Virus record (IMG/VR): IMGVR_UViG_3300029235_000124
Span: 1-19,357 of that record
Strand: one strand, 5' to 3'
DNA: 19,357 nt
Origin: a virus
Shown here: piece after piece, positions 6,555 to 19,357 of the stretch
Layout: each line of letters starts with the position of its first letter
Numbering within the stretch: position 1 is the first letter of the stretch
Notes under the pieces: model-generated
Seen by the model: the letters and a program-made list of their open reading frames with translations, nothing else
What the model was told of the DNA's origin: nothing
Databases searched by the model: none
Translations under genes and position numbers: made by a program

Positions 6555-6738
6555 GATGTTGGACATTATTAAAAAGCCCTTTTTTTTCAAAATATAAAAG
6601 TATTTCTGAAAGTTCTGAACGCGGAATACCAAGATAATCAAGTTCTTGAATAGCAATGAAATGACTGGTTTTAGACAATTCAATGAGAGCTTTATAAACA
6701 ATTTTTTGATTATCTGTAATGCAAAAATCGTAAAACAT
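6520..6738 (-). CDS. Small winged-helix-like DNA-binding protein (72 aa), opposite in orientation to the early operon
   Basis: AAAGGAGAA lies 8 nt before ATG 6738. The sequence KIVYKALIELSKTSHFIAIQELDYLGIPRSELSEILLYFEKKGLF resembles a wHTH. A TTGCCT-17-TATACT promoter candidate lies upstream on the minus strand. The 3' end overlaps the convergent 6327-6554 ORF by 35 nt. Confidence 0.55.
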   Translation of the reverse strand: MFYDFCITDNQKIVYKALIELSKTSHFIAIQELDYLGIPRSELSEILLYFEKKGLFNNVQHLSNAYPTLFSL

Positions 6739-6837
6739 AACAAGTTCTCCTTTCTTCTGTACTCGGCTCTGGCGGGGCCTGTGAGTACAGTATAGGACGG
6801 AGAAAACGGAAAGGCAACAAAGAGTTGATTATTTAGG

Positions 6838-6876
6838 AGTACCCATTGAGAAGTTGTTGGAGTAGGAGGTGAGAGA
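6838..6876 (+). repeat. Copy 2 of the roughly 40-nt leader repeat
   Basis: AGTACCCATTGAGAAG-T-TGTTGGA-GTAGGAGG-TGAGAGA, located immediately before ATG 6880. Confidence 0.8.
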
Positions 6877-6879
6877 CAT

Positions 6880-7101
6880 ATGCAGTATCCGAAAAAAGTA
6901 ATGAAGCTCACTGAGCTGGTAAAGGAAATGGGGTTCCCAGAAGAATATCTACAGAGGGCCTATCGACTTCCAACGCAGAGGTTTGCTGGAAAAATGAACC
7001 CGATGAAGAAAAATAGCCCAATCATATTTGATACAGAAGAGTTTGAAAAGTGGAGACTGCGTCAGATAGAGGCAGAGTCCCGGGCAATGATCAGGGGATA
7101 G
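6880..7101 (+). CDS. Small DNA-binding-like protein (candidate excisionase/MerR-type HTH; function tentative)
   Basis: 73 aa with GTAGGAGGTGA upstream. MKLTELVKEMGFPEEYLQRAYR resembles Xis-type HTH proteins. Stop is TAG. Confidence 0.6.
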   Translation: MQYPKKVMKLTELVKEMGFPEEYLQRAYRLPTQRFAGKMNPMKKNSPIIFDTEEFEKWRLRQIEAESRAMIRG

Positions 7102-7117
7102 AAGGGAGGTAGAAGTA

Positions 7118-7303
7118 ATGGCAAAGATCAAGAACTATGACGGTCAGACAGACATGGAGCTGTCCTATGTGGCAGTGCAGGCAACCAGGCCAAAGAAGAA
7201 AACTGTGGACTGGGTAGGCATCACGGAGACATTTATAGCCGGTGGCATGTGGGTGATAGTCTTCATGATGCTTGGGGCTGCGCTTGCGGTCCAGGTGCTG
7301 TGA
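7118..7303 (+). CDS. Small membrane protein (61 aa, one C-terminal TM helix)
   Basis: GGGAGGTAGAAG lies upstream. The hydrophobic tail is FIAGGMWVIVFMMLGAALAVQVL. Confidence 0.6.
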   Translation: MAKIKNYDGQTDMELSYVAVQATRPKKKTVDWVGITETFIAGGMWVIVFMMLGAALAVQVL

Positions 7304-7470
7304 TGACTAGTGCGGTACCTGCATCAGGAAGAACCGGTGCATGGAGAGAAGCCGCTTACAGGCATGCAGAGGCTACATAAAAAAGGACCCAGGCAGCGGC
7401 AACTGCGGAAGGTCCGGTAACAAAAACATTTTACACCCTCATTATACGGAGGGAGAAGGAGAATTGCAAG

Positions 7471-8736
7471 ATGGCAATGAAAATTAACAAGCTTGAGATT
7501 GAGAACGTCAAGCGTGTAAAGGCAGTAAAGATCGAACCGACAGCAAATGGGCTTACGATCATTGGTGGAAACAACAACCAGGGCAAGACTTCTGTCCTGG
7601 ATGCGATCGCCTGGGCTTTAGGCGGGGACAAATACCGTCCGTCCCAGGCTCAGAGGGAAGGCTCCGTGATCCCGCCAAACCTTCATATAGTCATGAGCAA
7701 TGGTCTGGTAGTGGAACGCAAGGGTAAGAACAGCACGTTAAAGGTAACAGATCCACAGGGACAGAAGGCCGGGCAGCAGCTTTTGAATGAGTTTGTGGAA
7801 CAGCTGGCACTGGATCTTCCGAAATTTATGGAGGCTTCTGACAGGGAAAAGGCAGGTATCCTGTTAAACATCATCGGTGTGGGAGACCAGCTGTCCCAGT
7901 TGGAAAAGGAAGAAAAGGAACTTTACAGTGAGCGTACCTATGTGGGGCGCACGGCAGACCAGAAAGAGAAGTATGCAAAAGAACAGCCTTATTATCCGGA
8001 TGTCCCAACAGTCCCAGTCTCAGCAGCGGAACTGATCCGCAAACAGCAGGAGATCCTGGCATAGAACGGGGAAAACCAGAGAAAGCGTGAAAGACGCCAC
8101 CAGCTGGAGCAGGAGATGCAGCGTGTCACGGATCAGATCCAGGAGCTTTTAAGGAAGCAGGCAGAGCTGGAAGCGGATCTTAAGATCGCCCGGTCGACCA
8201 GTGAGAACCTGCAGGATGAGTCTACCGCAGAACTGGAACAAAACATTGCAGAAGTGGAAGAGACCAACCGGAAAGTACGGGCCAACCTGGACAAAGACAA
8301 GGCAGAAGAAGATGCCAGGGGATACCGGGAACAGTACAATGCACTGACCGGAAAGATCCAGGAGGTACGGGATAAAAAGCTGGAACTGTTAAAGAAAGCA
8401 GATCTGCCGCTTCCAGGACTGACGGTTGAGGATGGGGAACTGGTCTACAATGGTCAGAAATGGGACAACATGTCCGGATCCGAACAGCTTAAGGTATCTA
8501 CCGCGATCGTACGCCGGTTAAATCCAAACTGTGGCTTTGTGCTCATGGACAAGCTGGAACAGATGGACCTGCATACCCTTCAGGAGTTTGGAAAGTGGCT
8601 GGAGGCAGAAGGTCTCCAGGCGATCGCTACCAGGGTATCTACGGGGGACGAGTGCAGCATTATCATCGAAGACGGGTATGTGGTAGGACAGCCGCACACC
8701 GAAGAAAAGAAAGAATGGAAAGCAGGTGTTTTTTAA
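7471..8736 (+). pseudogene. SMC/RecF/SbcC-like AAA ATPase (AAA_23 type) interrupted by one in-frame TAG at 8062-8064
   Basis: ORFs 7471-8064 and 8116-8736 are in the same frame, with 17 sense codons between the TAG and the next ATG. The N-terminal part has Walker A (GGNNNQGKTS). The C-terminal part has the ABC signature (SGSEQ) and Walker B (FVLMDKLEQMD). The coiled-coil sequence continues across the stop. Confidence 0.8.
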
Positions 8737-9906
8737 ATGGAGATCATCAGAGGAAAACAGCCGGGAGCAAAGAAGACCGTGATCTACGGTCCGGAAGGGA
8801 TCGGGAAGTCCACGCTGGCTTCCTGCTTCCCGGATCCGCTGTTCATTGATACAGAAGGTTCCACCAGGGATATGGATATCGCGCGTACCAAAGAGCCAAG
8901 CAGCTGGATGATGCTCATGGAGCAGGTCATGTATGTAAAGAACCATCCGGATATCTGCAAGACCCTGGTCATTGATACGGCGGACTGGGCTGAGATGCTC
9001 TGCATTTCCCAGATATGTGATAAGAACCACAAGAGCAGCATTGAGGAGTTTGGATATGGAAAAGGGTATACCTATGTCCAGGAAGAATTTGGGCGTCTTT
9101 TAAACCTGCTCACAGAAGTAATCAAGGTGGGGGTAAACGTGGTCCTTACAGCCCATGCAAAGATGCGCAAGTTTGAACAGCCGGATGAGCTGGGAGCTTA
9201 TGACCGCTGGGAGATGAAGCTGAGTAAAGGCGTAGCGCCCATGGTAAAAGAGTGGGCAGACATGGTACTGTTTGCGAATTATAAGACCATGGTGGTGAAC
9301 GTGGACGGCCAGGGAGCCCAGAAGGGGAAAAACAAAGCCCAGGGCGGAAAACGTGTCATGTATACCACCCACCACAGCTGCTGGGACGCAAAGAACCGCT
9401 ACAGCCTTCCGGATGAAGTGCCTTTTACATATGAGAGCATCCGGCAGATCCTGGAACCGGGAGCAGCCCGGGCAGAGGAGAGGCAGGAGGTAAAACAGCC
9501 AGGCCCTATACAGGAGACACAGCCAGCACCACCTGTCAGACCGGTAGAAACGGTAAAACATCCGGAGACAGCCAGTAGTAACAAGGGCAATGAAAAACCT
9601 GCAGAAGAAAAGAAAGGCATTGCGCCTGTGGAGGGCAGCAAAGGGGATGTAAAGCCGGATGGAAGATCGGCACTGGATCCACGTCTCCCAAAGAGACTGC
9701 GGGACCTGATGATCGCCAATGATGTGTGCGAATGGGATATACAGAACGTATGTGAAGCCAAGGGATATGTACCGGTGGATACGCCCCTTTACATGTATGA
9801 AGAGGTCAATCCGGGCTTTGTGGACGGCGTTCTGGTAGGTGCCTGGGACCAGGTGTATGCGGCGATCAGGGAAATGAAAGAAAAGGATTCTTTAGTATTT
9901 AATTAA
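8737..9906 (+). CDS. AAA_24-type RecA-like ATPase (Sak4-like recombination protein) with a linker and an extra C-terminal domain
   Basis: Walker A is VIYGPEGIGKST. Walker B-like is LVIDTADW. VVLTAHAK and a Pro/Lys/Glu-rich linker are also present. The TAA-ATG junction links it to the upstream gene. Confidence 0.8.
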   Translation: MEIIRGKQPGAKKTVIYGPEGIGKSTLASCFPDPLFIDTEGSTRDMDIARTKEPSSWMMLMEQVMYVKNHPDICKTLVIDTADWAEMLCISQICDKNHKSSIEEFGYGKGYTYVQEEFGRLLNLLTEVIKVGVNVVLTAHAKMRKFEQPDELGAYDRWEMKLSKGVAPMVKEWADMVLFANYKTMVVNVDGQGAQKGKNKAQGGKRVMYTTHHSCWDAKNRYSLPDEVPFTYESIRQILEPGAARAEERQEVKQPGPIQETQPAPPVRPVETVKHPETASSNKGNEKPAEEKKGIAPVEGSKGDVKPDGRSALDPRLPKRLRDLMIANDVCEWDIQNVCEAKGYVPVDTPLYMYEEVNPGFVDGVLVGAWDQVYAAIREMKEKDSLVFN

Positions 9907-9923
9907 TGAGGAGGATGAAAGAA

Positions 9924-10373
9924 ATGGCAGATTTAGGAAAAGAGATCGGCTGGGATGATGCGATCGAGAATGAAGGGACTGAGTTTGAGCCCCTTCCGGA
10001 AGGGACTTATGAATTTACAGTGGCATCCATGGAACGCGCCCATTTCGGAGGAAGCGAGAAGATGGCACCCTGTAACATGGCGAACCTGGACCTTCTGATC
10101 AAGGATAAGGACGGCAAGGAACACCATGTATTTGACAGCCTGTACCTGAACTCAAAGGCAGAGTGGAGACTGAGCCAGTTCTTCTTATGCATTGGACAGA
10201 AGAAGAAAGGGGAAGCACTGCGGCCTAACTGGAATGAAGTGCCATGCTCTACCGGCAAGGTGGAAGTCATGATCAATGAATATGTGGACAAGAACGGCAA
10301 TAAGCGCAGGAATAACCGTGTCAGCCGTTATCTGGAGTATGAACCAAAGCAGTTTAAGGCGGGTGTGTTCTAA
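9924..10373 (+). CDS. DUF669-family phage protein
   Basis: FEPLPEGTYEFTV is a typical DUF669 start. It sits between the AAA_24 and helicase genes, as in many Firmicutes phages. ATG 9924 is preferred (GAGGAGGA 8 nt upstream); the ORF track starts at 9906. Confidence 0.75.
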   Translation: MADLGKEIGWDDAIENEGTEFEPLPEGTYEFTVASMERAHFGGSEKMAPCNMANLDLLIKDKDGKEHHVFDSLYLNSKAEWRLSQFFLCIGQKKKGEALRPNWNEVPCSTGKVEVMINEYVDKNGNKRRNNRVSRYLEYEPKQFKAGVF

Positions 10374-11366
10374 ATGGAATTGAGACCGTATCAGGCAGAA
10401 GCGAAAGCAGCCGTATTTGAGCAGTGGGATAAGGGTACATTGAAGACCCTTTTGGTACTGCCGACCGGCTGCGGAAAGACCATCGTGTTTGCAAAAGTCG
10501 CAGAAGACTGTGTGCGTCAAGGATACAGGGTACTGATCCTGGCGCACCGGGGCGAGCTCCTGGAACAGGCTGCGGATAAGATCAAGAAGAGCACGAACCT
10601 GGGATGTGCGACAGAAAAAGCAGAGCAGACCTGTCTGGGGAGCTGGTTCCGGATCACAGTAGGCTCTGTACAGTCCATGCAGCGTGAAAAACGCCTGTCC
10701 CAGTTTTCAGAGAATTATTTCAATGTGATCATCATTGATGAGGCCCATCACTGCATATCAGACGGATACCAGAAGGTGCTGCAGCATTTCCCGTCTGCAA
10801 AAGTACTGGGAGTGACTGCAACGCCTGACCGTGGCGATATGCGTAACCTGGGAGAATTTTTTGAGAGCCTGGCTTATGAATATACCCTTCCGAAAGCGAT
10901 CCGGGAGGGTTATCTATCCCCGATCAAGGCCATGACGATCCCGCTGCAGCTGGATCTGTCCGGGGTATCCATCCAGTCCGGTGATTTTAAAGCCGGTGAC
11001 ATTGCAACAGCCCTGGATCCGTATCTGCACCAGATCGCGGACGAGATGATGAAATACTGCAGGGACCGAAAGACGGTCGTGTTCCTTCCACTGGTAAAGA
11101 CCAGCCAGAAGTTCAAAGAGATCCTGAATGAAAAGGGATTTAAAGCTGCGGAAGTCAATGGTGAGAGCAAAGACCGCGCAGAAGTCCTGGAAGCCTTTGA
11201 TAAAGGAGAATACAACGTCCTGTGCAATTCCATGCTGCTGACGGAAGGCTGGGACTGCCCGTCCGTTGATTGTGTGATCGTGCTGCGTCCAACAAAGGTG
11301 CGCAGCCTTTACAGCCAGATGGTAGGACGCGGGACCAGACTGTGTGAAGGAAAGAGCCATCTATTA
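10374..11366 (+). pseudogene. SF2 DEAD/DEAH-box helicase, 3'-truncated by deletion
   Basis: Motifs I PTGCGKT, II DEAH (IIIDEAHH), III TAT (VTATPDR) and VI QMVGRGTR are present. Helicase-like sequence ends about 10 codons after motif VI, and the frame then reads through into the tail-tube gene. Confidence 0.75.
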
Positions 11367-11393
11367 TCTATCAAAGAAAGTGAGGAATGTGTA

Positions 11394-11849
11394 ATGAGTG
11401 AAGTAGGAGGAAAAGTATATCCTGTACACAATAACGTGTTTAAATTTGGTACAAAGGGTATGGACAGCGTGGACGGCGATATGGTAATGCCTGCGGATCT
11501 GGAGAACTTTGCGCCAACCATTGACGGTACCACAGAAGAATGGTATGCCATGGACGCAGAAGGCTGGGCCAAATCTGCTATGACTGGCAAAAAACTCAGC
11601 TTTGCTTTTAAGGGAAAGCGTTCCGTAGGTGATGCCGGAAATGATTATATCGCAGGCCTTGCATGGAAATTTGGCCAGGATGTAATGACCAAGTTTGAGT
11701 GGACCATGACATCCGGGGCTAAGCTGGCTTGTGATGTAGTAGTAAATGTGACTACCCCAGGAGGCGGTGATACAACGAATATCGATGCCCTGGAGTTTGA
11801 GGTTACTTGTTATGGAAAACCAACCTATACACCGGTAGTGGCAGCGTAA
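11394..11849 (+). CDS. Major tail (tail tube) protein, SPP1 gp17.1-like
   Basis: Own ribosome-binding site GTGAGGAA before ATG 11394. FKGKRSVGDAGNDYIAGLA resembles the YYGKRGDAGQKAIEDA region of SPP1 gp17.1. It is followed by the chaperone pair and tape measure. Confidence 0.7.
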   Translation: MSEVGGKVYPVHNNVFKFGTKGMDSVDGDMVMPADLENFAPTIDGTTEEWYAMDAEGWAKSAMTGKKLSFAFKGKRSVGDAGNDYIAGLAWKFGQDVMTKFEWTMTSGAKLACDVVVNVTTPGGGDTTNIDALEFEVTCYGKPTYTPVVAA

Positions 11850-11865
11850 AAGGAGACAATGAGCA

Positions 11866-12165
11866 ATGGCAAAAGTAGTAGATATTACAGATAAGCTTAC
11901 ATTTGATGGGAATCCATGCCTGATGATCAATGGAGAAAAACTGGAGGTAAATGCAGATGCTCCTACCATGATGAAAGTAATTAATGTTACAAGAAATGGT
12001 GGAACTTCAGAAGAAAATATGAATGAATTATACGAACTGGTATTTCCAGAAAAATCCAGAAAGGTAATTGATTCGTTGAAACTGCTGGTTCCAGATTGGA
12101 TGACTGTCATTCAGGAGGCCATAAAGCTGATCACAGGAGATATCACAGGCCAGGGAGAGCGCTGA
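11866..12165 (+). CDS. Tail assembly chaperone (gpG position)
   Basis: 99 aa with AAAGGAGA upstream. It lies between the tail tube and tape measure genes. Stop is TGA. Confidence 0.7.
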   Translation: MAKVVDITDKLTFDGNPCLMINGEKLEVNADAPTMMKVINVTRNGGTSEENMNELYELVFPEKSRKVIDSLKLLVPDWMTVIQEAIKLITGDITGQGER

Positions 12166-12214
12166 CCCGTACTACGACCTGTTTGAAGACTGGGACCTGA
12201 TCATTTCCAGTTTC

Positions 12215-12499
12215 ATGACGCAGTACGGGTTGCGTATAAGGACGAAAGAGTTTGAAACGGTCAGCTGGGATGAGTTCCGTTCCCTGCTGGTCGGACTTGG
12301 ACCGGAAACTCCCCTGGGACGGGTGGTGGCGATACGTTCTGAAACAGATGATAATGTGATCAAACATTTTACCACTGATCAGCGAAGAATCCATGACAGC
12401 TGGCGTAAACATCAGATGGAGCAGATGACTCCGGAGGCTTATGACAGGGAAATGGAAGGTCTGGAAAGGATGTTCGCTGCATTATGCGGAGGTGGTTGA
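12215..12499 (+). CDS. Gp15-like/gpT-position tail chaperone segment; conserved sequence extends upstream to 12131 without a start codon
   Basis: TQYGLRIRTKEF..VSWDEFRSLLVGLGPETPLGRVVAIRSE resembles Gp15-family tail proteins. The same frame is open from 12131 (..DPYYDLFEDWDLIISSF..). There is no ribosome-binding site before ATG 12215. Confidence 0.6.
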   Translation: MTQYGLRIRTKEFETVSWDEFRSLLVGLGPETPLGRVVAIRSETDDNVIKHFTTDQRRIHDSWRKHQMEQMTPEAYDREMEGLERMFAALCGGG

Positions 12500-12647
12500 A
12501 ATTGAAAAAGTAAAGCATGAAAAAGTCCGGTGCCCGTATTGCGGGCATCCGGTCAATGCCATGAAGTCAGAAGATGCCAAATGCAAGGGCATCTTTTTTA
12601 AATGTAAAAATAAGGAATGCAGGAAAATATTTGAGTTAAAGATCTAA
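12441..12647 (+). CDS. Small Com-like zinc-ribbon protein
   Basis: CPYCGHPVNAMKSEDAKCKGIFFKCKNKECRKIF has a CxxC...CxxxxC layout like Mu Com. The start is uncertain: ATG 12441 with GGAGG 3 nt upstream, or the alternatives GTG 12492 and ATT 12501. Confidence 0.5.
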   Translation: MTGKWKVWKGCSLHYAEVVEIEKVKHEKVRCPYCGHPVNAMKSEDAKCKGIFFKCKNKECRKIFELKI

Positions 12648-12695
12648 GACGCTGTGCCGATGTGCCTGTCTTAACGAAAAGGGCAGGTGATATAT

Positions 12696-15600
12696 ATGGC
12701 AGCAGACAGCGTAGGCCAGATTGGGCTTGATCTGGTAGTAAATAAAAATGAGTTTGACAGTCAGATGCTGGGGATACAGAATCTGGCAAAAAAAGCTGGC
12801 AAAGCACTTGCAGCTGCTTTTGCAGTCAAAAAAGTATTTGACTTTGGAAAGTCCTGTATAGAATTAGGCTCTGATCTGGCAGAAGTCCAGAACGTAGTTG
12901 ATGTTACATTTTCCCAGATGAGCAAACAGGTAGATAAGTTTGCCCAGAATGCAGCCACTCAGTTTGGATTGTCTGAGACCATGGCAAAGCGGTTTACCGG
13001 TACTTTTGGAGCTATGGCAAAGGCATTTGGCTTCAGTGAGAAGGCTGCATATGACATGTCCACAATTCTTACTGGTCTTGCCGGAGATGTGGCATCTTTC
13101 TACAACATCAGCCAGGATGAGGCATATACGAAGTTAAAGTCTGTATTCACTGGTGAAACAGAAAGCTTGAAAGACCTGGGCATTGTTATGACCCAGACGG
13201 CTCTTGACAGCTATGCTATGGTAAATGGCTTCAGAAAGACTACAGCAAAGATGTCGGAAATGGAAAAGGTTGCCCTGCGGTATAAGTTTGTACAGGATCA
13301 GCTGACAACGGCAGCAGGTGACTTCTCCAGGACATCCACTGGCTGGGCGAACCAGGTCCGTATCTTACAGCTGCAGTTTGACAGCTTAAAGGCAACCATA
13401 GGACAGGGGCTTATAGCTGCATTATCCCCGGTCATCCAGGTGATCAACGCAGTCATTGGTAAAATACTCAGCCTGGTGAATGCATTTAAAGCTTTTTTTG
13501 CCTTGATGTCTGGTGGTAAAGATTCAGGAGCATCCGCAACTGCAGCGGGTATGGAAGCTGTAGCTGTCGCAGCAGATAAAGCTGGAACGGCTGCTTCCGG
13601 TGCTGGGAATGCTGCAAAGAAAGCTGCTAAGGATATCAAAACGGCTACCACTGGTATTGATGAGCTTAATATCTTAAACCCGGATAGTGGTTCAGATAGC
13701 GGAAGCGGATCTGGCGGTAGTGGAGCAGGCGGCTACAATGCAGATGACTTTGATATGGGAACACTTCCGGAACAGGAAGATATAGTCAGTGGTAAGCTGC
13801 GGAAGATAGCTGGCCTGCTGAACCAGTTAAAAGATTCTTTTACAAGTGGTTTTTGGGATGCTTTTGGCGACACATCTGTATTTGATTCGATCCAAAGCAG
13901 CATCCAGTCCATAAAAGACAGCCTTGGGAATATTTTTACTGATTCTGATGTGCAGACAGCGGCTTTAGGTTTTGCCAATACACTGGCCCAGTCATTAGGA
14001 CAGGTTACAGGTTCCATTGCAAGCATCGGTGCGAGTATTGCAGATAATCTTCTGGGAGGTATCAGCAGGTATCTTGAACAGAATAAGGACCGTATTAAAG
14101 ATTATCTGATCCAGATGTTTAATATTGGCGGTGAGATTGCGACATTAGTTGGAAATTTCACAAGTTCCATTGCAGGGATCTTTACTGTATTTCGCAGTGA
14201 CTCAGCGAAACAGATCACAGCTGATATAATAGGTATTTTCAGTAGTTCCTTTATGGGAGTTACAAAATTAGGCAGTAAATTTGTCCGGGATCTGATGCAG
14301 GTTATAACAAAGCCTATAACCGATAATGCTGGTCAGATCAAAGAACGGATACAGGGGCTATTAGACGAACTGCAGCCTATATTTGATAAGCTGAAAGAAT
14401 TAATTGATAAGATATGGGATGGCCTGAATACAGCTTATGATACTGTTGCAAAGCCAGTATTTGATGCATTTACAGAAGCGATATCTTCAGTTGTGGACTG
14501 GATAACAGAAACTCAGACACGCTTTGACGGAGCTATTGGAGTTGTTGCTGCTTTCTTTGGGGCATGGGAAGTTGTAAAACTTGGTGAATTCATCATTAAT
14601 GCTGGTGGCGTCGTATCAATGCTTTCTGGAATGGTAGCTGGTTTTGTAGCAAATGCGGCTGCTATTGCAACACATACAGCAGCGCTTATAGCAGATAAGC
14701 TGGAGACAGCCGCTATTGTTGCTATGTATGCCAAAGATTTTGTAGTAAACCTGGCGCAAGGAACAGCGGCCCTGGTGCAGCAGGCGGCCCAGTTTGTTAT
14801 CAATACAGCAGCAAAGATAGCAGATACCGCAGCTCAGATTGCCATGACTGCAGCTACAGTGGCTTGGAATGCTGTATGTGCGATCGCAACAACGGTTACT
14901 ACTGCTTTAGGTGCGGCTATTGCATTCCTTACCAGTCCGATCGGTTTTGTTATCATTGCTATAACAGCGCTGATTACGGCTGGAGTTCTTCTGTATCAGC
15001 ATTGGGATGAAGTCAAAAAGTTTGCAGCCGAAGCCTGGGAAGCAATTAAAAAGACAATAAATAATGCCATCGATGCGGTTAAGGTGTTCATATCCAGTAC
15101 GCTTGAACTGATAAAAACAGCCTGGGAAACTAAGTGGAACCAGATCAAGGCATTTGCATCTAATCTATGGAATACGATCAAAGCTCTTGCGACATCTATT
15201 TTCGAAGCGATCAGAGACAAGCTTTCCGAGATCTGGGACAGTGTAAAAAGGACTATTGAAGAAAAATGGAACGCTATCAAGGATTGGTTTGAAGATATCT
15301 GGAAAAAGATCAAAGAAGTGTTTAAACCGGATGCAATGATCGAGGTCGGAAAGAGCATCATGAACAAACTCTGGGACGGCTTAAAATCCGTCTGGGGTTC
15401 CATTGCCGGATGGCTACAGGGCTGTGCTGATTTTGTTGGTGGTGTCTGGGATGGCATTGTAGAAGGTGCAAAGAGTATTTTCAAGAGTGCTAAAGAAGAT
15501 GCAGAAGATGATGAGGAAGCAGATGACAGTGATGATTGGGATTATGGTACCAATTCACCGGTATCAGGTCATGCTTCCGGTGGCTTCCCTAAATCTGGTC

Positions 15601-16043
15601 AGATGTTCGTAGCCCGTGAAGACGGTATCCCAGAGATGGTTGGAAGCTGGGGCGGCCGTGCAGCAGTTGCCAATAACCAGCAGATCACCCAGGGCATTAC
15701 CCAGGCAGTCCAGAACGGCATGCGTTCCTGTATGGCTCCGCTTGTATCCATGATGTCAAGTGTAGCAGGTAATGCAGCACCGCCGCTGGCAGTAACAGGC
15801 CGTGCGGCTGTTTATGAAAATGATGATGACAGGCTTATGAACCTGGTAAGCCGCGCCATGGCGTTATCACAGAATGGTACTGGTATGGATGATTCACGTA
15901 TCGTGCGCATCCAGGAACTTTTGGAGCGCATTGTGGATCTGATCGAGGCCATGGACCTGACAGTGAGCATTGATATCCGAGATGTAAAGAAGAAATTGAC
16001 GGATCTGGAAAAGAGAAGCGGTTACACGTTAAGGACAACGTAA
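12696..16043 (+). CDS. Tail tape measure protein
   Basis: About 1115 aa. TP901-type core (LGSDLAEVQNVVD...LKSVFTGETESLKDLGIVMTQ), a GSDSGSGSGGSGAGG linker, an Ala-rich hydrophobic segment, and Trp residues recurring every 11 residues (WDEVKKFAAEAW.., WDSVKRTIEEKW..). ATG 12696 with AGGTGA 5 nt upstream. Confidence 0.92.
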   Translation: MAADSVGQIGLDLVVNKNEFDSQMLGIQNLAKKAGKALAAAFAVKKVFDFGKSCIELGSDLAEVQNVVDVTFSQMSKQVDKFAQNAATQFGLSETMAKRFTGTFGAMAKAFGFSEKAAYDMSTILTGLAGDVASFYNISQDEAYTKLKSVFTGETESLKDLGIVMTQTALDSYAMVNGFRKTTAKMSEMEKVALRYKFVQDQLTTAAGDFSRTSTGWANQVRILQLQFDSLKATIGQGLIAALSPVIQVINAVIGKILSLVNAFKAFFALMSGGKDSGASATAAGMEAVAVAADKAGTAASGAGNAAKKAAKDIKTATTGIDELNILNPDSGSDSGSGSGGSGAGGYNADDFDMGTLPEQEDIVSGKLRKIAGLLNQLKDSFTSGFWDAFGDTSVFDSIQSSIQSIKDSLGNIFTDSDVQTAALGFANTLAQSLGQVTGSIASIGASIADNLLGGISRYLEQNKDRIKDYLIQMFNIGGEIATLVGNFTSSIAGIFTVFRSDSAKQITADIIGIFSSSFMGVTKLGSKFVRDLMQVITKPITDNAGQIKERIQGLLDELQPIFDKLKELIDKIWDGLNTAYDTVAKPVFDAFTEAISSVVDWITETQTRFDGAIGVVAAFFGAWEVVKLGEFIINAGGVVSMLSGMVAGFVANAAAIATHTAALIADKLETAAIVAMYAKDFVVNLAQGTAALVQQAAQFVINTAAKIADTAAQIAMTAATVAWNAVCAIATTVTTALGAAIAFLTSPIGFVIIAITALITAGVLLYQHWDEVKKFAAEAWEAIKKTINNAIDAVKVFISSTLELIKTAWETKWNQIKAFASNLWNTIKALATSIFEAIRDKLSEIWDSVKRTIEEKWNAIKDWFEDIWKKIKEVFKPDAMIEVGKSIMNKLWDGLKSVWGSIAGWLQGCADFVGGVWDGIVEGAKSIFKSAKEDAEDDEEADDSDDWDYGTNSPVSGHASGGFPKSGQMFVAREDGIPEMVGSWGGRAAVANNQQITQGITQAVQNGMRSCMAPLVSMMSSVAGNAAPPLAVTGRAAVYENDDDRLMNLVSRAMALSQNGTGMDDSRIVRIQELLERIVDLIEAMDLTVSIDIRDVKKKLTDLEKRSGYTLRTT

Positions 16044-16057
16044 GGAGGCGGTAACAA

Positions 16058-16435
16058 ATGGCAGTAATAACGATCAATGGCCGGGAGTTCCCGGCTCCTG
16101 ATGTAGGTGGAAATCTTGTAGTTGCAACCAATGTTAGTTCCGGAAAAAATGCAAATGGCGAATTTGTTGGACAGAAGGTTGGCAGGGATCAATATAAATT
16201 CGATGCATTGCAGTGGAAATTCCTGGATGCAGCTACCTGGTCAGCTATGTTGCAGGAATTTGACAAATTTGTAGTGACCGCCCGGATCCCGGATATGGTA
16301 AACAATCGTTTCCAGACGATCCGCATGTATCCGGGAAACCGTACAGCCACGCCGGTCGAATTTAATGGATCAGGGCTTCCTACAAAGTACCGGGACTGTA
16401 AGGTCAACATCATAGACTGCGGGGTGATAGAATAA
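16058..16435 (+). CDS. Small tail protein directly after the tape measure (distal-tail position)
   Basis: AAGGAGG upstream. 125 aa starting MAVITINGREFPAP, resembling small post-TMP proteins of Clostridia phages. Function is inferred from position. Confidence 0.6.
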   Translation: MAVITINGREFPAPDVGGNLVVATNVSSGKNANGEFVGQKVGRDQYKFDALQWKFLDAATWSAMLQEFDKFVVTARIPDMVNNRFQTIRMYPGNRTATPVEFNGSGLPTKYRDCKVNIIDCGVIE

Positions 16436-18666
16436 TGCAAGCTGTAAGCAATGCATATAAACAGGAAATGAAAAAGCAGTATCGTGATCATTCCTATATG
16501 CGCGTCAGTATTGGCCTGATCAATCAGGAGGCCCAGGCATCTGCTTATATACCTGACCAGGAGAAATATGCTTATTATAGCAATCTGACCTGGCCACTCA
16601 ACAACTATGAGGTTTCGGAACTGTATGAAACCTGTGACCAGGATTACAGTACCGTAGATGGGAGTATGTATTTTTTGCCAAGGGAACGTCAGGATGCGGT
16701 CCTTAACCAGGGGATCATTACAGATGATCTTTTAGGTGAGGTTGAGATCCGTTTTCCGGTGCAGCACGATATAAAAGGTCTCACAGTAGAATTTGGCAAA
16801 GCGTATCCTGTGGATTTTTCCATTGTATCAGATGAACATACGGTTGAGATCACAGGGAATGATACAGGGCATTTTGTGACGGAAGAGATCTTTCCTGGTG
16901 CAACATTTCTCCGGTTTGTGCCAAAGGATATGGTCAATGGGCAAAGCCGGCTGCGGATCCACCGTATCACGATGGGAATCGGTATCTACTTTGATAACCA
17001 GAAGATATTGTCAGCCACAAAGAAAGAGCGGATCAGTCCTGTTATGGAAGATCTGCCATCCATTGATCTGAACATAACCATTGATAATAAAAACCGTGCA
17101 TATGACATTGAAAATGAAGAGAGTACGGTAAATTTCCTGGAAAATGGCCAGGAGATCAATGTAATTTACGGTCAGGAGTTGGATGATGGAAATGTGGAGT
17201 GGATGCCCGGTACCACGGTATATCTGCGGGAATGGTCTGCAGATGATGAAGAAATGAGTTTTACTGCTACGGATCGTTTTGATGGCATGGATGGAACTTA
17301 CCGCCGCGGAAAATATTATCCTGATGGAATAAGCCTGTATGATCTTGCAGTTGATGTCTTTGGCGATGCCGGAATAGACAGCCGTACCTATTGGCTTGAT
17401 AATTATCTAAAAGATGTTATGGTTTATAATCCAATGCCAGTAGTATCCCATAAAGAAGCACTGCAGCTGATCGCAAATGCCGGACGCTGTATTCTTTACC
17501 AGGACCGGAATGGAAATATATTTATGAAGTCCAGTTTTATACCGGACATGCAGGCAAGTTCAGCAAATGAAACTTACTTTTCTAATACGGCTTCAGTACT
17601 GGATGCAACAGAAAAAAGCACTTATGCCACACCGGAAAAGGATCACACAGAAGCATCAGCTGTACAGTTCTTTTTGCCATATCAGGATAAAAACTATCTG
17701 GATGTGGGATATGTATCGGAAGCAGTAGCGGATGAAGATGGGACATTTACAGAAGATCCATTGGTGACTATCGTTCTGGAAGCGCGGTACAAGTGCTTTG
17801 GCCTTACATTGGAATTTGGAGGTAATCATCCGTCTGGTATGGTATTCCGTTCCTATTTGGGAGAGGAACTGGTGGAAGAGTATAAAATATCTTCTCTTTC
17901 TGAAGTTACTGTGGTCAATCATGAATTCCCGGAATTTGATAAGCTGCAGATTGAATTTTCAAAGGGAGTACCGTTTAACAGGGTAAACCTGAAACAGATC
18001 ACATTTGGGGACGGTACTGATTATGAACTGTCTTATGGCAAAGAACTGAAAAAAACTCCCAAAGGCACCCAGCTGGCAAAAGTCCGTGAACTGCAGATGA
18101 CCAGGACGATCTATGCATCAGGAACTGAGAAAAGGCAACTGGTCAAGGAAACTGTACTGGCAGATGAAACCAGGCATACATTTTATCTTAATGCAGCGGC
18201 TTATGATTATGAAGTAGATGCAGCTGGTGGCACAAATGTCCAGATCATTGATAGCAGTGCATATTACGTTACGGTAGAGGTTGCCGGTGGAGCAGATACG
18301 GAAGTGACCATAAATGGATATGAATACAATGTAACACAGGCGCTTGTGACCAGACAGTTAAATCCCACAGGGACTGTTGAAACGTGGGAAAATCCGCTTG
18401 TATCTACGTTAAAGCATGCGTCAGATCTTGCTGAATGGATAGGAGATTATCTGCGTTCCGACCGGGAATATGATTTGGAATATCGTGGAGAGCCGCGTAT
18501 TGATGCAAATGATATTGCATTCCTGGAAAATAAATACGTTCCAGATCTGCTGCTGCGGATATATGAACATACATTGAAGTTTAATGGGGCATTGTCCGGC
18601 ACCCTAAAGGCAAGGAGGGATATGAGCAATGTGGCAACAGCCAAAAACAGACTGGCAGGCCAGTGA
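16435..18666 (+). CDS. Large tail tip/baseplate protein (Tal position)
   Basis: 743 aa, joined to the upstream gene by a TAATG overlap. The call rests on position and size. No enzymatic motif was recognised. Confidence 0.6.
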   Translation: MQAVSNAYKQEMKKQYRDHSYMRVSIGLINQEAQASAYIPDQEKYAYYSNLTWPLNNYEVSELYETCDQDYSTVDGSMYFLPRERQDAVLNQGIITDDLLGEVEIRFPVQHDIKGLTVEFGKAYPVDFSIVSDEHTVEITGNDTGHFVTEEIFPGATFLRFVPKDMVNGQSRLRIHRITMGIGIYFDNQKILSATKKERISPVMEDLPSIDLNITIDNKNRAYDIENEESTVNFLENGQEINVIYGQELDDGNVEWMPGTTVYLREWSADDEEMSFTATDRFDGMDGTYRRGKYYPDGISLYDLAVDVFGDAGIDSRTYWLDNYLKDVMVYNPMPVVSHKEALQLIANAGRCILYQDRNGNIFMKSSFIPDMQASSANETYFSNTASVLDATEKSTYATPEKDHTEASAVQFFLPYQDKNYLDVGYVSEAVADEDGTFTEDPLVTIVLEARYKCFGLTLEFGGNHPSGMVFRSYLGEELVEEYKISSLSEVTVVNHEFPEFDKLQIEFSKGVPFNRVNLKQITFGDGTDYELSYGKELKKTPKGTQLAKVRELQMTRTIYASGTEKRQLVKETVLADETRHTFYLNAAAYDYEVDAAGGTNVQIIDSSAYYVTVEVAGGADTEVTINGYEYNVTQALVTRQLNPTGTVETWENPLVSTLKHASDLAEWIGDYLRSDREYDLEYRGEPRIDANDIAFLENKYVPDLLLRIYEHTLKFNGALSGTLKARRDMSNVATAKNRLAGQ

Positions 18667-19030
18667 TTATTTTAATATCAAGGATTATAACCGCATAAAA
18701 GGAAATCTGAATGAGATCCGGCGTCAGGCGCTTATCCTGTGGCCGGATTTTACGTTTGAAGATATGGGCGGGGATAAAGCCTATACGGATTATGGCTTTT
18801 ATGCAGATGAGATCAACCGGTTTGAAGCCAATGTGGAACATATCTGTGTAGGTGTGTTCCCTTTTAAGGTAGGTGAACGGAAGACGTTTTACGAGAACCA
18901 GCTTTTTATTGACTGGAAGGAACTGAACCGTATCGAAGAGGCCTGCAGACTGATGTACAGTAATATCCAGAGCCGGATCACAGGGAGGCGTAAGCTTGCA
19001 TTTACCCTAAACGGAGGAGAGATATGTTAA
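18629..19030 (+). CDS. Tail-fibre-associated protein (hypothetical)
   Basis: AAGGAGGG lies 9 nt before ATG 18629. WQQPKTDWQASDYFNIKDYNRIKGNLNEI is a motif common in Firmicutes phage fibre-region proteins. Confidence 0.6.
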   Translation: MWQQPKTDWQASDYFNIKDYNRIKGNLNEIRRQALILWPDFTFEDMGGDKAYTDYGFYADEINRFEANVEHICVGVFPFKVGERKTFYENQLFIDWKELNRIEEACRLMYSNIQSRITGRRKLAFTLNGGEIC

Positions 19031-19357
19031 AAACGGATTATAAAGATGCCATGTATGATGGCGCACGGAAATATAAGATCACATCGAATGCCGATGGGAC
19101 TTCCGGTATTACAGATGAAACAGTCTATACGCAGGAAGGGGATCCCTTTGGAGCAAACGATATCAATTCCACAAACAAAGCTATCAACCGTATAAATGGT
19201 GAACCTGCTAATGTCACTCTTACAGCAAGCGGCTGGACGGGAGATACAGCTCCGTATAGCCAGACAGTTGAGGTAGAAGGTGTTACAGCAGAAGATAATC
19301 CCATCTTTGTAAGTCTGCTGGAAGATGGGGCTCCTGCAGAAACCCAGAAAGCATATA
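19024..19357 (+). CDS. Tail fibre/receptor-binding-like protein, 3' end beyond the window
   Basis: GGAGGAGAGAT precedes ATG 19024, which overlaps the previous stop. The frame is open to the window end (MLKTDYKDAMYDGARKYKITSNADGTSGITDETVYTQEGDPFGANDINSTNKAINRI...). Confidence 0.6.
   Translation, partial: MLKTDYKDAMYDGARKYKITSNADGTSGITDETVYTQEGDPFGANDINSTNKAINRINGEPANVTLTASGWTGDTAPYSQTVEVEGVTAEDNPIFVSLLEDGAPAETQKAY

Follow-up and report, generated by a model that had tools for sequence, protein, structure and literature searches.

How does an open reading frame (ORF) that begins as a helicase come to end as a tail tube protein, with no packaging or head gene in between? The question is raised by the stretch of viral DNA analysed here, positions 1–19,357 of IMG/VR record IMGVR_UViG_3300029235_000124 (19,357 nt, referred to below as the window), in which the ORF at 10374–11849 encodes a 491-aa protein that joins the two. 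The window is very probably the left two-thirds of a temperate siphovirus prophage, next to a tRNA-Lys gene, which was made defective by one recent 19,288-bp deletion arising by illegitimate recombination and leaving an accidental in-frame fusion. The host is probably a human-gut bacterium of the Lachnospiraceae/Clostridia, to judge only from the source names carried by related proteins (Clostridium sp., Lachnospiraceae); a GTDB search with a spacer of the tRNA cluster gave no match. Genes in the window were identified by Pfam and PHROGs profile matches, and tRNAs by ARAGORN.

The chimeric nature of the 491-aa protein, first proposed in a sequence-only reading of the window, is confirmed by the ORF itself and by profile matches. 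Residues 1–331 match phrog_16, a DNA helicase (E 3e-97), and residues 347–489 match phrog_820, a major tail protein (E 3e-41); the Pfam domains are ResIII (residues 1–153) and Helicase_C (227–322). The superfamily 2 (SF2) helicase motifs claimed in that reading are all readable in the translation: I (LPTGCGKT), II (DEAH), III (TATP) and VI (QMVGRGTR). When the chimera is used as a protein search query, the exact 491-aa protein (P0001) is found on few contigs and a 529-aa helicase on very many, the latter being listed in 1,131 index blocks of the collection. Residues 1–330 of the 529-aa helicase of intact relatives are identical to those of the chimera, in which the C-terminal 198 aa are gone and other sequence stands in their place. 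The helicase part of the window is identical to two intact loci, L018 and L004, up to base 11365; the earlier estimate that helicase-like sequence stops near 11366 was therefore exact, and full-length helicases of this family do not simply end at this point. On the other side of the join, ATG 11394 is the called start of a 151-aa tube protein in intact phages, in agreement with the proposal that a ribosome-binding site and this ATG open a complete tail tube gene. The ribosome-binding site, GAGGAA at 11382–11387, is overlapped by a remnant of the preceding gene. The same 151-aa protein, indexed in 6,881 blocks across the collection, is called in intact phages, where its gene lies between the terminator and the chaperone and tape-measure genes. 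The description of this protein as SPP1 gp17.1-like could not be confirmed, and the phrog_820 match stands: a sequence search of the PDB with E up to 10 matched no chain, and a single-sequence AlphaFold model reached a predicted local distance difference test score (pLDDT) of 35, too low for a fold search.

Both endpoints of the deletion are fixed by alignment to near-identical intact prophages, which bears out the view of the join as a deletion scar that removes the packaging and head modules. From 231 to 11365 the window is 100.000% identical (0 of 11,135 nt differ) to the intact prophage L018, which shares its integrase/immunity module with the window and, past the join, extends into the full helicase and the primase; the immunity region at 3496–4978 is likewise 100% identical. 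From 11364 to 19357 the window is 99.99% identical (1 of 7,994 nt differs) to the intact prophage L014, in which terminator, connector, capsid, portal and terminase genes lie upstream of the tube gene. The window is thus intact helicase DNA through base 11365, diverging after it, and from base 11364 it is the 3' end of a terminator gene followed by the tube gene. The microhomology at the join is 2 nt (TT), which is all that both parents share there. A composite parent was rebuilt from L004 and L013, which overlap by 1,282 nt at 100% identity. The block missing from the window corresponds to composite positions 10993–30280 (19,288 bp), running from helicase codon 331 into the terminator gene, of which only the last 18 nt are spared, and the composite without this block reproduces the junction found in a second carrier, L001.

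What the deletion removed can be read from the intact loci. Downstream of the full helicase these carry a 763-aa PriCT_2/AAA_25 primase-helicase, RusA, small genes, the phrog_36 transcriptional regulator (141 aa, just upstream of the packaging genes), TerS and TerL. Upstream of the identical tube gene they carry TerS, TerL, an SPP1-type portal, Phage_min_cap2, scaffold, major capsid and connectors, and directly before the tube ATG a 134-aa PF12691 tail terminator gene (called in L010–L017). Lost in the window are the helicase C-terminus, the primase-helicase, RusA, the small genes, the phrog_36 regulator, TerS, TerL, the portal, the minor and major capsid genes, the scaffold, the connectors and nearly all of the terminator gene. 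Gene calls and profile matches confirm that no primase, terminase, portal, capsid or connector gene separates the replication and tail modules. Nor are head genes placed downstream of the tail module: L001, the single carrier that can be traced downstream, has only tail and holin genes there. The tail ORFs to the right of the junction are uninterrupted, as the sequence-only reading had noted, and include a tape measure of 1115 aa from ATG 12696, a length shared with intact L013, L014 and L017. The lengths of the three distal genes (125, 743 and 133 aa) also equal those of intact phages.

The fusion of helicase and tube arose by chance. The helicase and tube genes are in the same frame across the join, with no stop codon in that frame among the 28 bases that precede ATG 11394, so the ORF runs through. 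TAATG at 11392–11396, previously taken for the stop/start overlap of a lost upstream gene, lies in the third frame; the terminator gene in fact ends at TGA 11381–11383, within the tube ribosome-binding site.

The deletion is rare and very recent. The fusion protein was found on 6 contigs, against 1,131 index blocks with the intact helicase, and the junction makes up under 1% of contigs of this phage; the junction is thus not conserved across related strains. A look-up of the fusion protein's cluster yielded no further sample information. Searches with a junction 44-mer and 21-mer in IMG/VR, JGI metagenome contigs and GTDB genomes gave no match. Among the IMG/VR loci that include the tube 5' region, the terminator gene lies upstream in 27 of 27 and the junction occurs in 0 of 27. 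Carriers differ from intact phages by 0–1 substitutions over 19 kb, and no site varies among the carriers between 7355 and 19349. This near-zero divergence of the flanks indicates that the deletion is very recent; with 0–1 substitutions, the ratio of non-synonymous to synonymous substitution rates (dN/dS) cannot be computed and selection is not measurable. The divergence of 0/11,135 and 1/7,994 nt, the rarity of the junction and the occurrence of other independent deletions in the family together favour the idea of a recently crippled prophage, which the sequence-only reading had offered as the first of its two interpretations.

The proposed course of events is a short one. Illegitimate recombination at the TT microhomology would have removed the block in a single event, after which the helicase ORF would run over the ribosome-binding site and ATG of the tube gene to give the 491-aa chimera. 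Packaging, head and primase genes are essential for virion production. With its replication and head genes lost (TerS, TerL, portal, capsid, connectors and primase absent, helicase truncated), the element would be able neither to replicate autonomously nor to package DNA or form heads, and is therefore a defective prophage. Because the late-gene regulator has been lost together with its promoter region, the tail genes and the downstream lysis genes would be transcribed, on derepression, only by read-through from the early operon; between 6500 and 13000 the + strand holds one weak terminator-like site, inside the helicase gene. The tube protein could then be made both as the 491-aa fusion and from its internal ribosome-binding site and ATG.

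The remaining features of the window (Table 1) are those of an integrated temperate phage, with integrase, repressor, Cro and antirepressor genes beside a tRNA cluster. The match to the window starts at 418 in L020, which has other flanks, and at 231 in L018, and attL would accordingly lie between about 394 and 418, directly after tRNA-Lys. The host flank of the window is also present in L019, L025 and L026. A gene for an NYN protein is also found among the genes upstream of the chimera. The lysogeny module recurs on contigs with other flanks (a sigma-54 gene, an insertion sequence (IS) transposase) and with wholly different replication modules, a distribution that shows strong mosaicism. A megablast search of 9000–13500 against GenBank phages gave no match. 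Within the tail module, the 99-aa and 94-aa ORFs are presumed from their position to encode tail assembly chaperones, and the 125-, 743- and 133-aa products are presumed from synteny only to be distal-tail and tail-tip proteins; PDB sequence searches with the 125-aa and 743-aa proteins returned only noise. In the otherwise uncalled gap between the second ORF in chaperone position and the tape measure gene lies a 68-aa ORF (12441–12647, + strand) with two CxxC pairs, resembling a zinc ribbon.

Table 1. Features of the window, with positions counted from its first base
Feature	Position	Strand	Identification and remarks
Host tRNA cluster	130–393		ARAGORN; tRNA-Met, tRNA-Phe, tRNA-Lys; plus partial tRNA at 1–75
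Host tRNA-Lys, last gene of cluster	321–393	+	ARAGORN
Tyrosine integrase	571–1731	-	PF00589, PF14659
M78 (ImmA-like) peptidase with zinc ribbon	3496–4602	-	Pfam
Helix-turn-helix (HTH; CI-like) repressor	4556–4978	-	Pfam
Cro-like HTH protein	5075–5275	+	Pfam; start of early rightward operon
AntA/KilAC antirepressor	5500–6273	+	Pfam
AAA_23/SbcC-like ATPase gene, split	7471–8736	+	197-aa and 206-aa ORFs; in-frame TAG 8062–8064
Sak4-like AAA_24 annealing protein	8737–9906	+	Profile matches
DUF669/SSB-like protein	9906–10373	+	Profile matches
Truncated SF2 helicase, codons 1–331 of 529	10374–11365	+	Motifs I–VI kept
Deletion junction	11364–11365		TT common to both parental sequences; 19,288 bp absent here
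Tail terminator/head-tail connector remnant	11366–11383	+	PF12691, phrog_2595; 5 codons (IYQRK) and TGA
Major tail (tube) protein, complete, 151 aa	11394–11849	+	phrog_820; in frame with helicase remnant
Two small ORFs, 99 aa and 94 aa	11866–12499	+	phrog_8300, phrog_8355; weak Phage_Gp15 match
Tape measure protein, 1115 aa	12696–16043	+	phrog_1535, E 2e-143
Distal tail genes, 125 aa, 743 aa and 133 aa	16058–19030	+	phrog_1194, phrog_13879, phrog_18725, all annotated 'unknown function'

Two features of the surrounding DNA vary among relatives. The TAG that splits the AAA_23/SbcC-like gene is CAG in L005–L007 and L028, giving a single 421-aa gene. The TAG allele also occurs in the otherwise intact L004, L008, L009, L018 and L020, and is therefore independent of the deletion, part of a widespread CAG/TAG polymorphism; it could be a tolerated split in a coiled-coil region, or be read through. 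A suppressor tRNA was considered for this codon. In the only phage-borne tRNA-like gene (L004 18906–18974; Rfam tRNA, 49 bits), however, the anticodon loop is shortened and defective, and ARAGORN assigns no anticodon; the gene sits in the segment lost from the window, on the stretch that separates the phrog_36 regulator of the intact phage from its packaging genes. The other variable feature lies just past the right end of the window, where a segment of about 690 bp with 66-nt imperfect inverted repeats is found in opposite orientation among relatives (L001 19428–20132 compared with L014 18417–19103). The inversion alters the C-terminus of the adjacent gene of 235 aa or 216 aa, which is in tail-fibre position, and the size of a reverse-strand ORF (90 or 109 aa). 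This invertible segment looks like a host-range switch; no invertase was identified.

Other deletions are found in the same phage family. On 12 contigs (L028–L031) the sequence leaves the helicase at about 11384 and resumes 25 nt before the start of the regulator gene, with a loss of about 6.9 kb and CAA as microhomology. In L032, helicase position 11391 is joined to the middle of the capsid gene, with AT as microhomology; P0006 and P0004 are the proteins listed with these two deletions. In L070 (protein P0121) a small neck-region deletion of 577 nt starts in a connector gene and ends 10 nt ahead of the tube ATG, and protein P0204, known only from the protein sequence, would represent a second of this kind, with another connector fused to tube residue 15. 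L025 (contig ERZ19696786 k141_52473, 14000–14143), compared with L026 and L033, belongs to a different phage that shares only the lysogeny module of the window. Here a 460-aa DEAD helicase breaks off just after Walker A, and a PhiTE-type tube gene begins at most 30 nt downstream of the join. The deletion takes out the head genes and the tail sheath, and 17 nt at the join match neither available parent; because the sheath is lost, the product cannot be a functional contractile tailocin. The microhomologies of the other independent deletions are 2–5 nt. Small-microhomology deletions with varied right ends have thus been sampled repeatedly in this very abundant phage group. The clustering of right breakpoints shortly before tube genes might have had a mechanistic cause, but this was largely rejected in favour of ascertainment: only the 42 nt ahead of the ATG are open, and every tube fusion has to break there. 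Clustering on the helicase side is ascertainment too, since a query with the helicase N-terminus finds only helicase-side breakpoints. GGAAAG (Gly-Lys codons) lies near the helicase-side breakpoints in L004 10976–10992 and 11375–11391 and in L026 13992–14014, and the L028 and L032 breakpoints, separated by 7 nt, fall in a hairpin whose folding exceeds that of shuffled sequences (z -3.1); the first pattern was picked post hoc, and neither is claimed as a signal.

Two observations weigh against the interpretation of the window as a single, dead-end deletion. The identical junction occurs with two distinct integrase/immunity modules, and the retained gene set opens precisely with the tube gene, whose ribosome-binding site is intact, as in F-type pyocin clusters (bioRxiv 10.1101/2021.02.16.431561). 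The window comes, besides, from an assembled metagenome, in which an assembler might have joined the helicase and tube regions wrongly. The junction is, however, also present in L001 (a 32.9-kb scaffold running from a host fumarase gene through the integrase to a holin), L002 (a Logan contig) and L003 (a MEGAHIT contig), and L001 and L003 differ from the window by single-nucleotide polymorphisms and a 13-nt indel at 7104–7321. An overlap of 2 nt is far below any k-mer overlap and cannot mislead a k-mer assembler, and three different pipelines or records that otherwise differ from the window agree, so that an artefact of this kind is scarcely credible. The two backgrounds are more of a puzzle. 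The window represents an A-type background, at tRNA-Lys and equal to intact L018, whereas L001 and L003 represent a B-type background at the fumarase locus, L001 being 99.98% identical to intact L004; a single dead-end deletion therefore needs an extra step of recombination or gene conversion. Alternatively, a structure- or enzyme-directed break might have cut out this 19.3-kb segment more than once, each time at the same nucleotides but in a different prophage. The near-identity of each background to its own intact parent is in line with this, as are the two other deletions that begin within the helicase hairpin, the GGAAAG motif lying 4–17 nt upstream of four of four helicase-side breakpoints (5–9% of positions would be expected to qualify) and a 2-nt crossover that resembles, in appearance only, the core of a serine recombinase. 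Yet the breakpoints of the window itself show no significant DNA folding (z -1.0 and -0.85), the motif was chosen after the fact with n=4, and the clustering is forced on the helicase side by the N-terminal query and on the tube side by a frame open for only 14 codons upstream of the ATG. The lost segment encodes no recombinase, and no reciprocal excised-circle junction was found in IMG/VR. Moreover, 12 kb around the junction is identical in the A-type and B-type forms, so the data are accounted for by a single event and later gene conversion between related prophages, which would be the simplest explanation of the two backgrounds; phasing of polymorphisms to separate a single origin from recurrence met no informative site, none being variable from 7355 to 19349 among carriers. 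A recurrent, directed deletion is accordingly considered very improbable.

The second observation raises the question of function. It was suggested in the sequence-only reading that the window might be a tail-only element retained by its host. In its explicit form, the deletion would have made a producer of headless, non-contractile tail particles under an SOS-derepressed early operon, kept by the host as a weapon resembling an F-type bacteriocin. The tail set needed for this is in place, as tube, two ORFs in chaperone position, tape measure and three distal genes are all intact, with lengths as in intact phages, and head genes are absent. The tube gene keeps its ribosome-binding site and ATG, no convincing terminator separates it from the early operon, and a holin gene is still found downstream in L001 (with a lysozyme after the holin in the intact relative L016). 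The junction is moreover carried on two prophage backgrounds. The loss of the tail terminator was considered as a refutation and rejected as such, because F-type pyocin clusters, which begin with the tube gene, have none either and their authors judged it dispensable (bioRxiv 10.1101/2021.02.16.431561); in monocin the particle is capped by such a protein, FtbF (PMC11830787), so that its absence is not decisive. Against this, the window is not a dedicated, conserved locus: an ordinary prophage's integrase, repressor and antirepressor are still there, as are its recombination genes (among them the Sak4-like and DUF669 genes), and the junction is confined to the 6 contigs. The deletion has also taken the phrog_36 regulator that precedes the late genes, nothing in the 0–1 substitutions of the flanks points to retention by selection, and the other deletions of the family end at unrelated places (upstream of the regulator, mid-capsid, inside the tube gene or with the sheath removed), a pattern that fits random decay. 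Of the original suggestion, the headless, intact tail set stood; retention by the host gained no positive support from a junction so rare and free of any signal of selection, and was not refuted. A headless element kept as a weapon is therefore very unlikely, and so is a tailocin caught at birth, in which a tail-plus-lysis module behind an SOS-controlled early operon would already be spreading between related prophages through a benefit to the host. The deletion is ordinary prophage decay, one more case of a known phenomenon.

The defective prophage nevertheless shows, at nucleotide resolution, how prophage decay begins in a Clostridia phage abundant in the human gut, with both parents known and no secondary mutations. 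The junction is useful as a marker for strain tracking, and the ORF is a caution for annotation pipelines, which would call it a 491-aa 'helicase'. If carriers release active tail particles, or if the junction is recurrent or directed, the locus would also bear on the origins of tailocins.

Among known systems, the monocin of Listeria monocytogenes (ftb cluster; PMC11830787) resembles the window in having a siphovirus-derived tail module in a Gram-positive bacterium, a holin-lysin cassette and no head genes. It differs in being a dedicated cluster of 18 genes with regulators, with the FtbF cap and with an experimentally established activity, whereas the terminator gene of the window has been deleted. 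The F-type pyocins of Pseudomonas aeruginosa share with the window a non-contractile tail set that starts at the tube gene without a terminator and continues with chaperones, tape measure and tip, with a lysis cassette nearby. Unlike the window, they occupy a conserved chromosomal locus in most strains, have their own regulators, lack integrase, immunity and replication genes, and have a demonstrated killing activity. The closest likeness is to cryptic or defective prophages. Incomplete prophages preferentially lose genes for replication, packaging and release and keep integrase and tail-fibre genes (PMC7744054); in the same way the window combines tRNA-adjacent integration, an integrase and an immunity region with the loss of replication, packaging and head genes and the retention of integrase and tail, and intact relatives hold the missing block at the same position. 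It departs from such prophages in being extremely early, with one lesion and 0–1 substitutions, in its in-frame helicase-tube ORF, and in the presence of the same lesion on two lysogeny modules.

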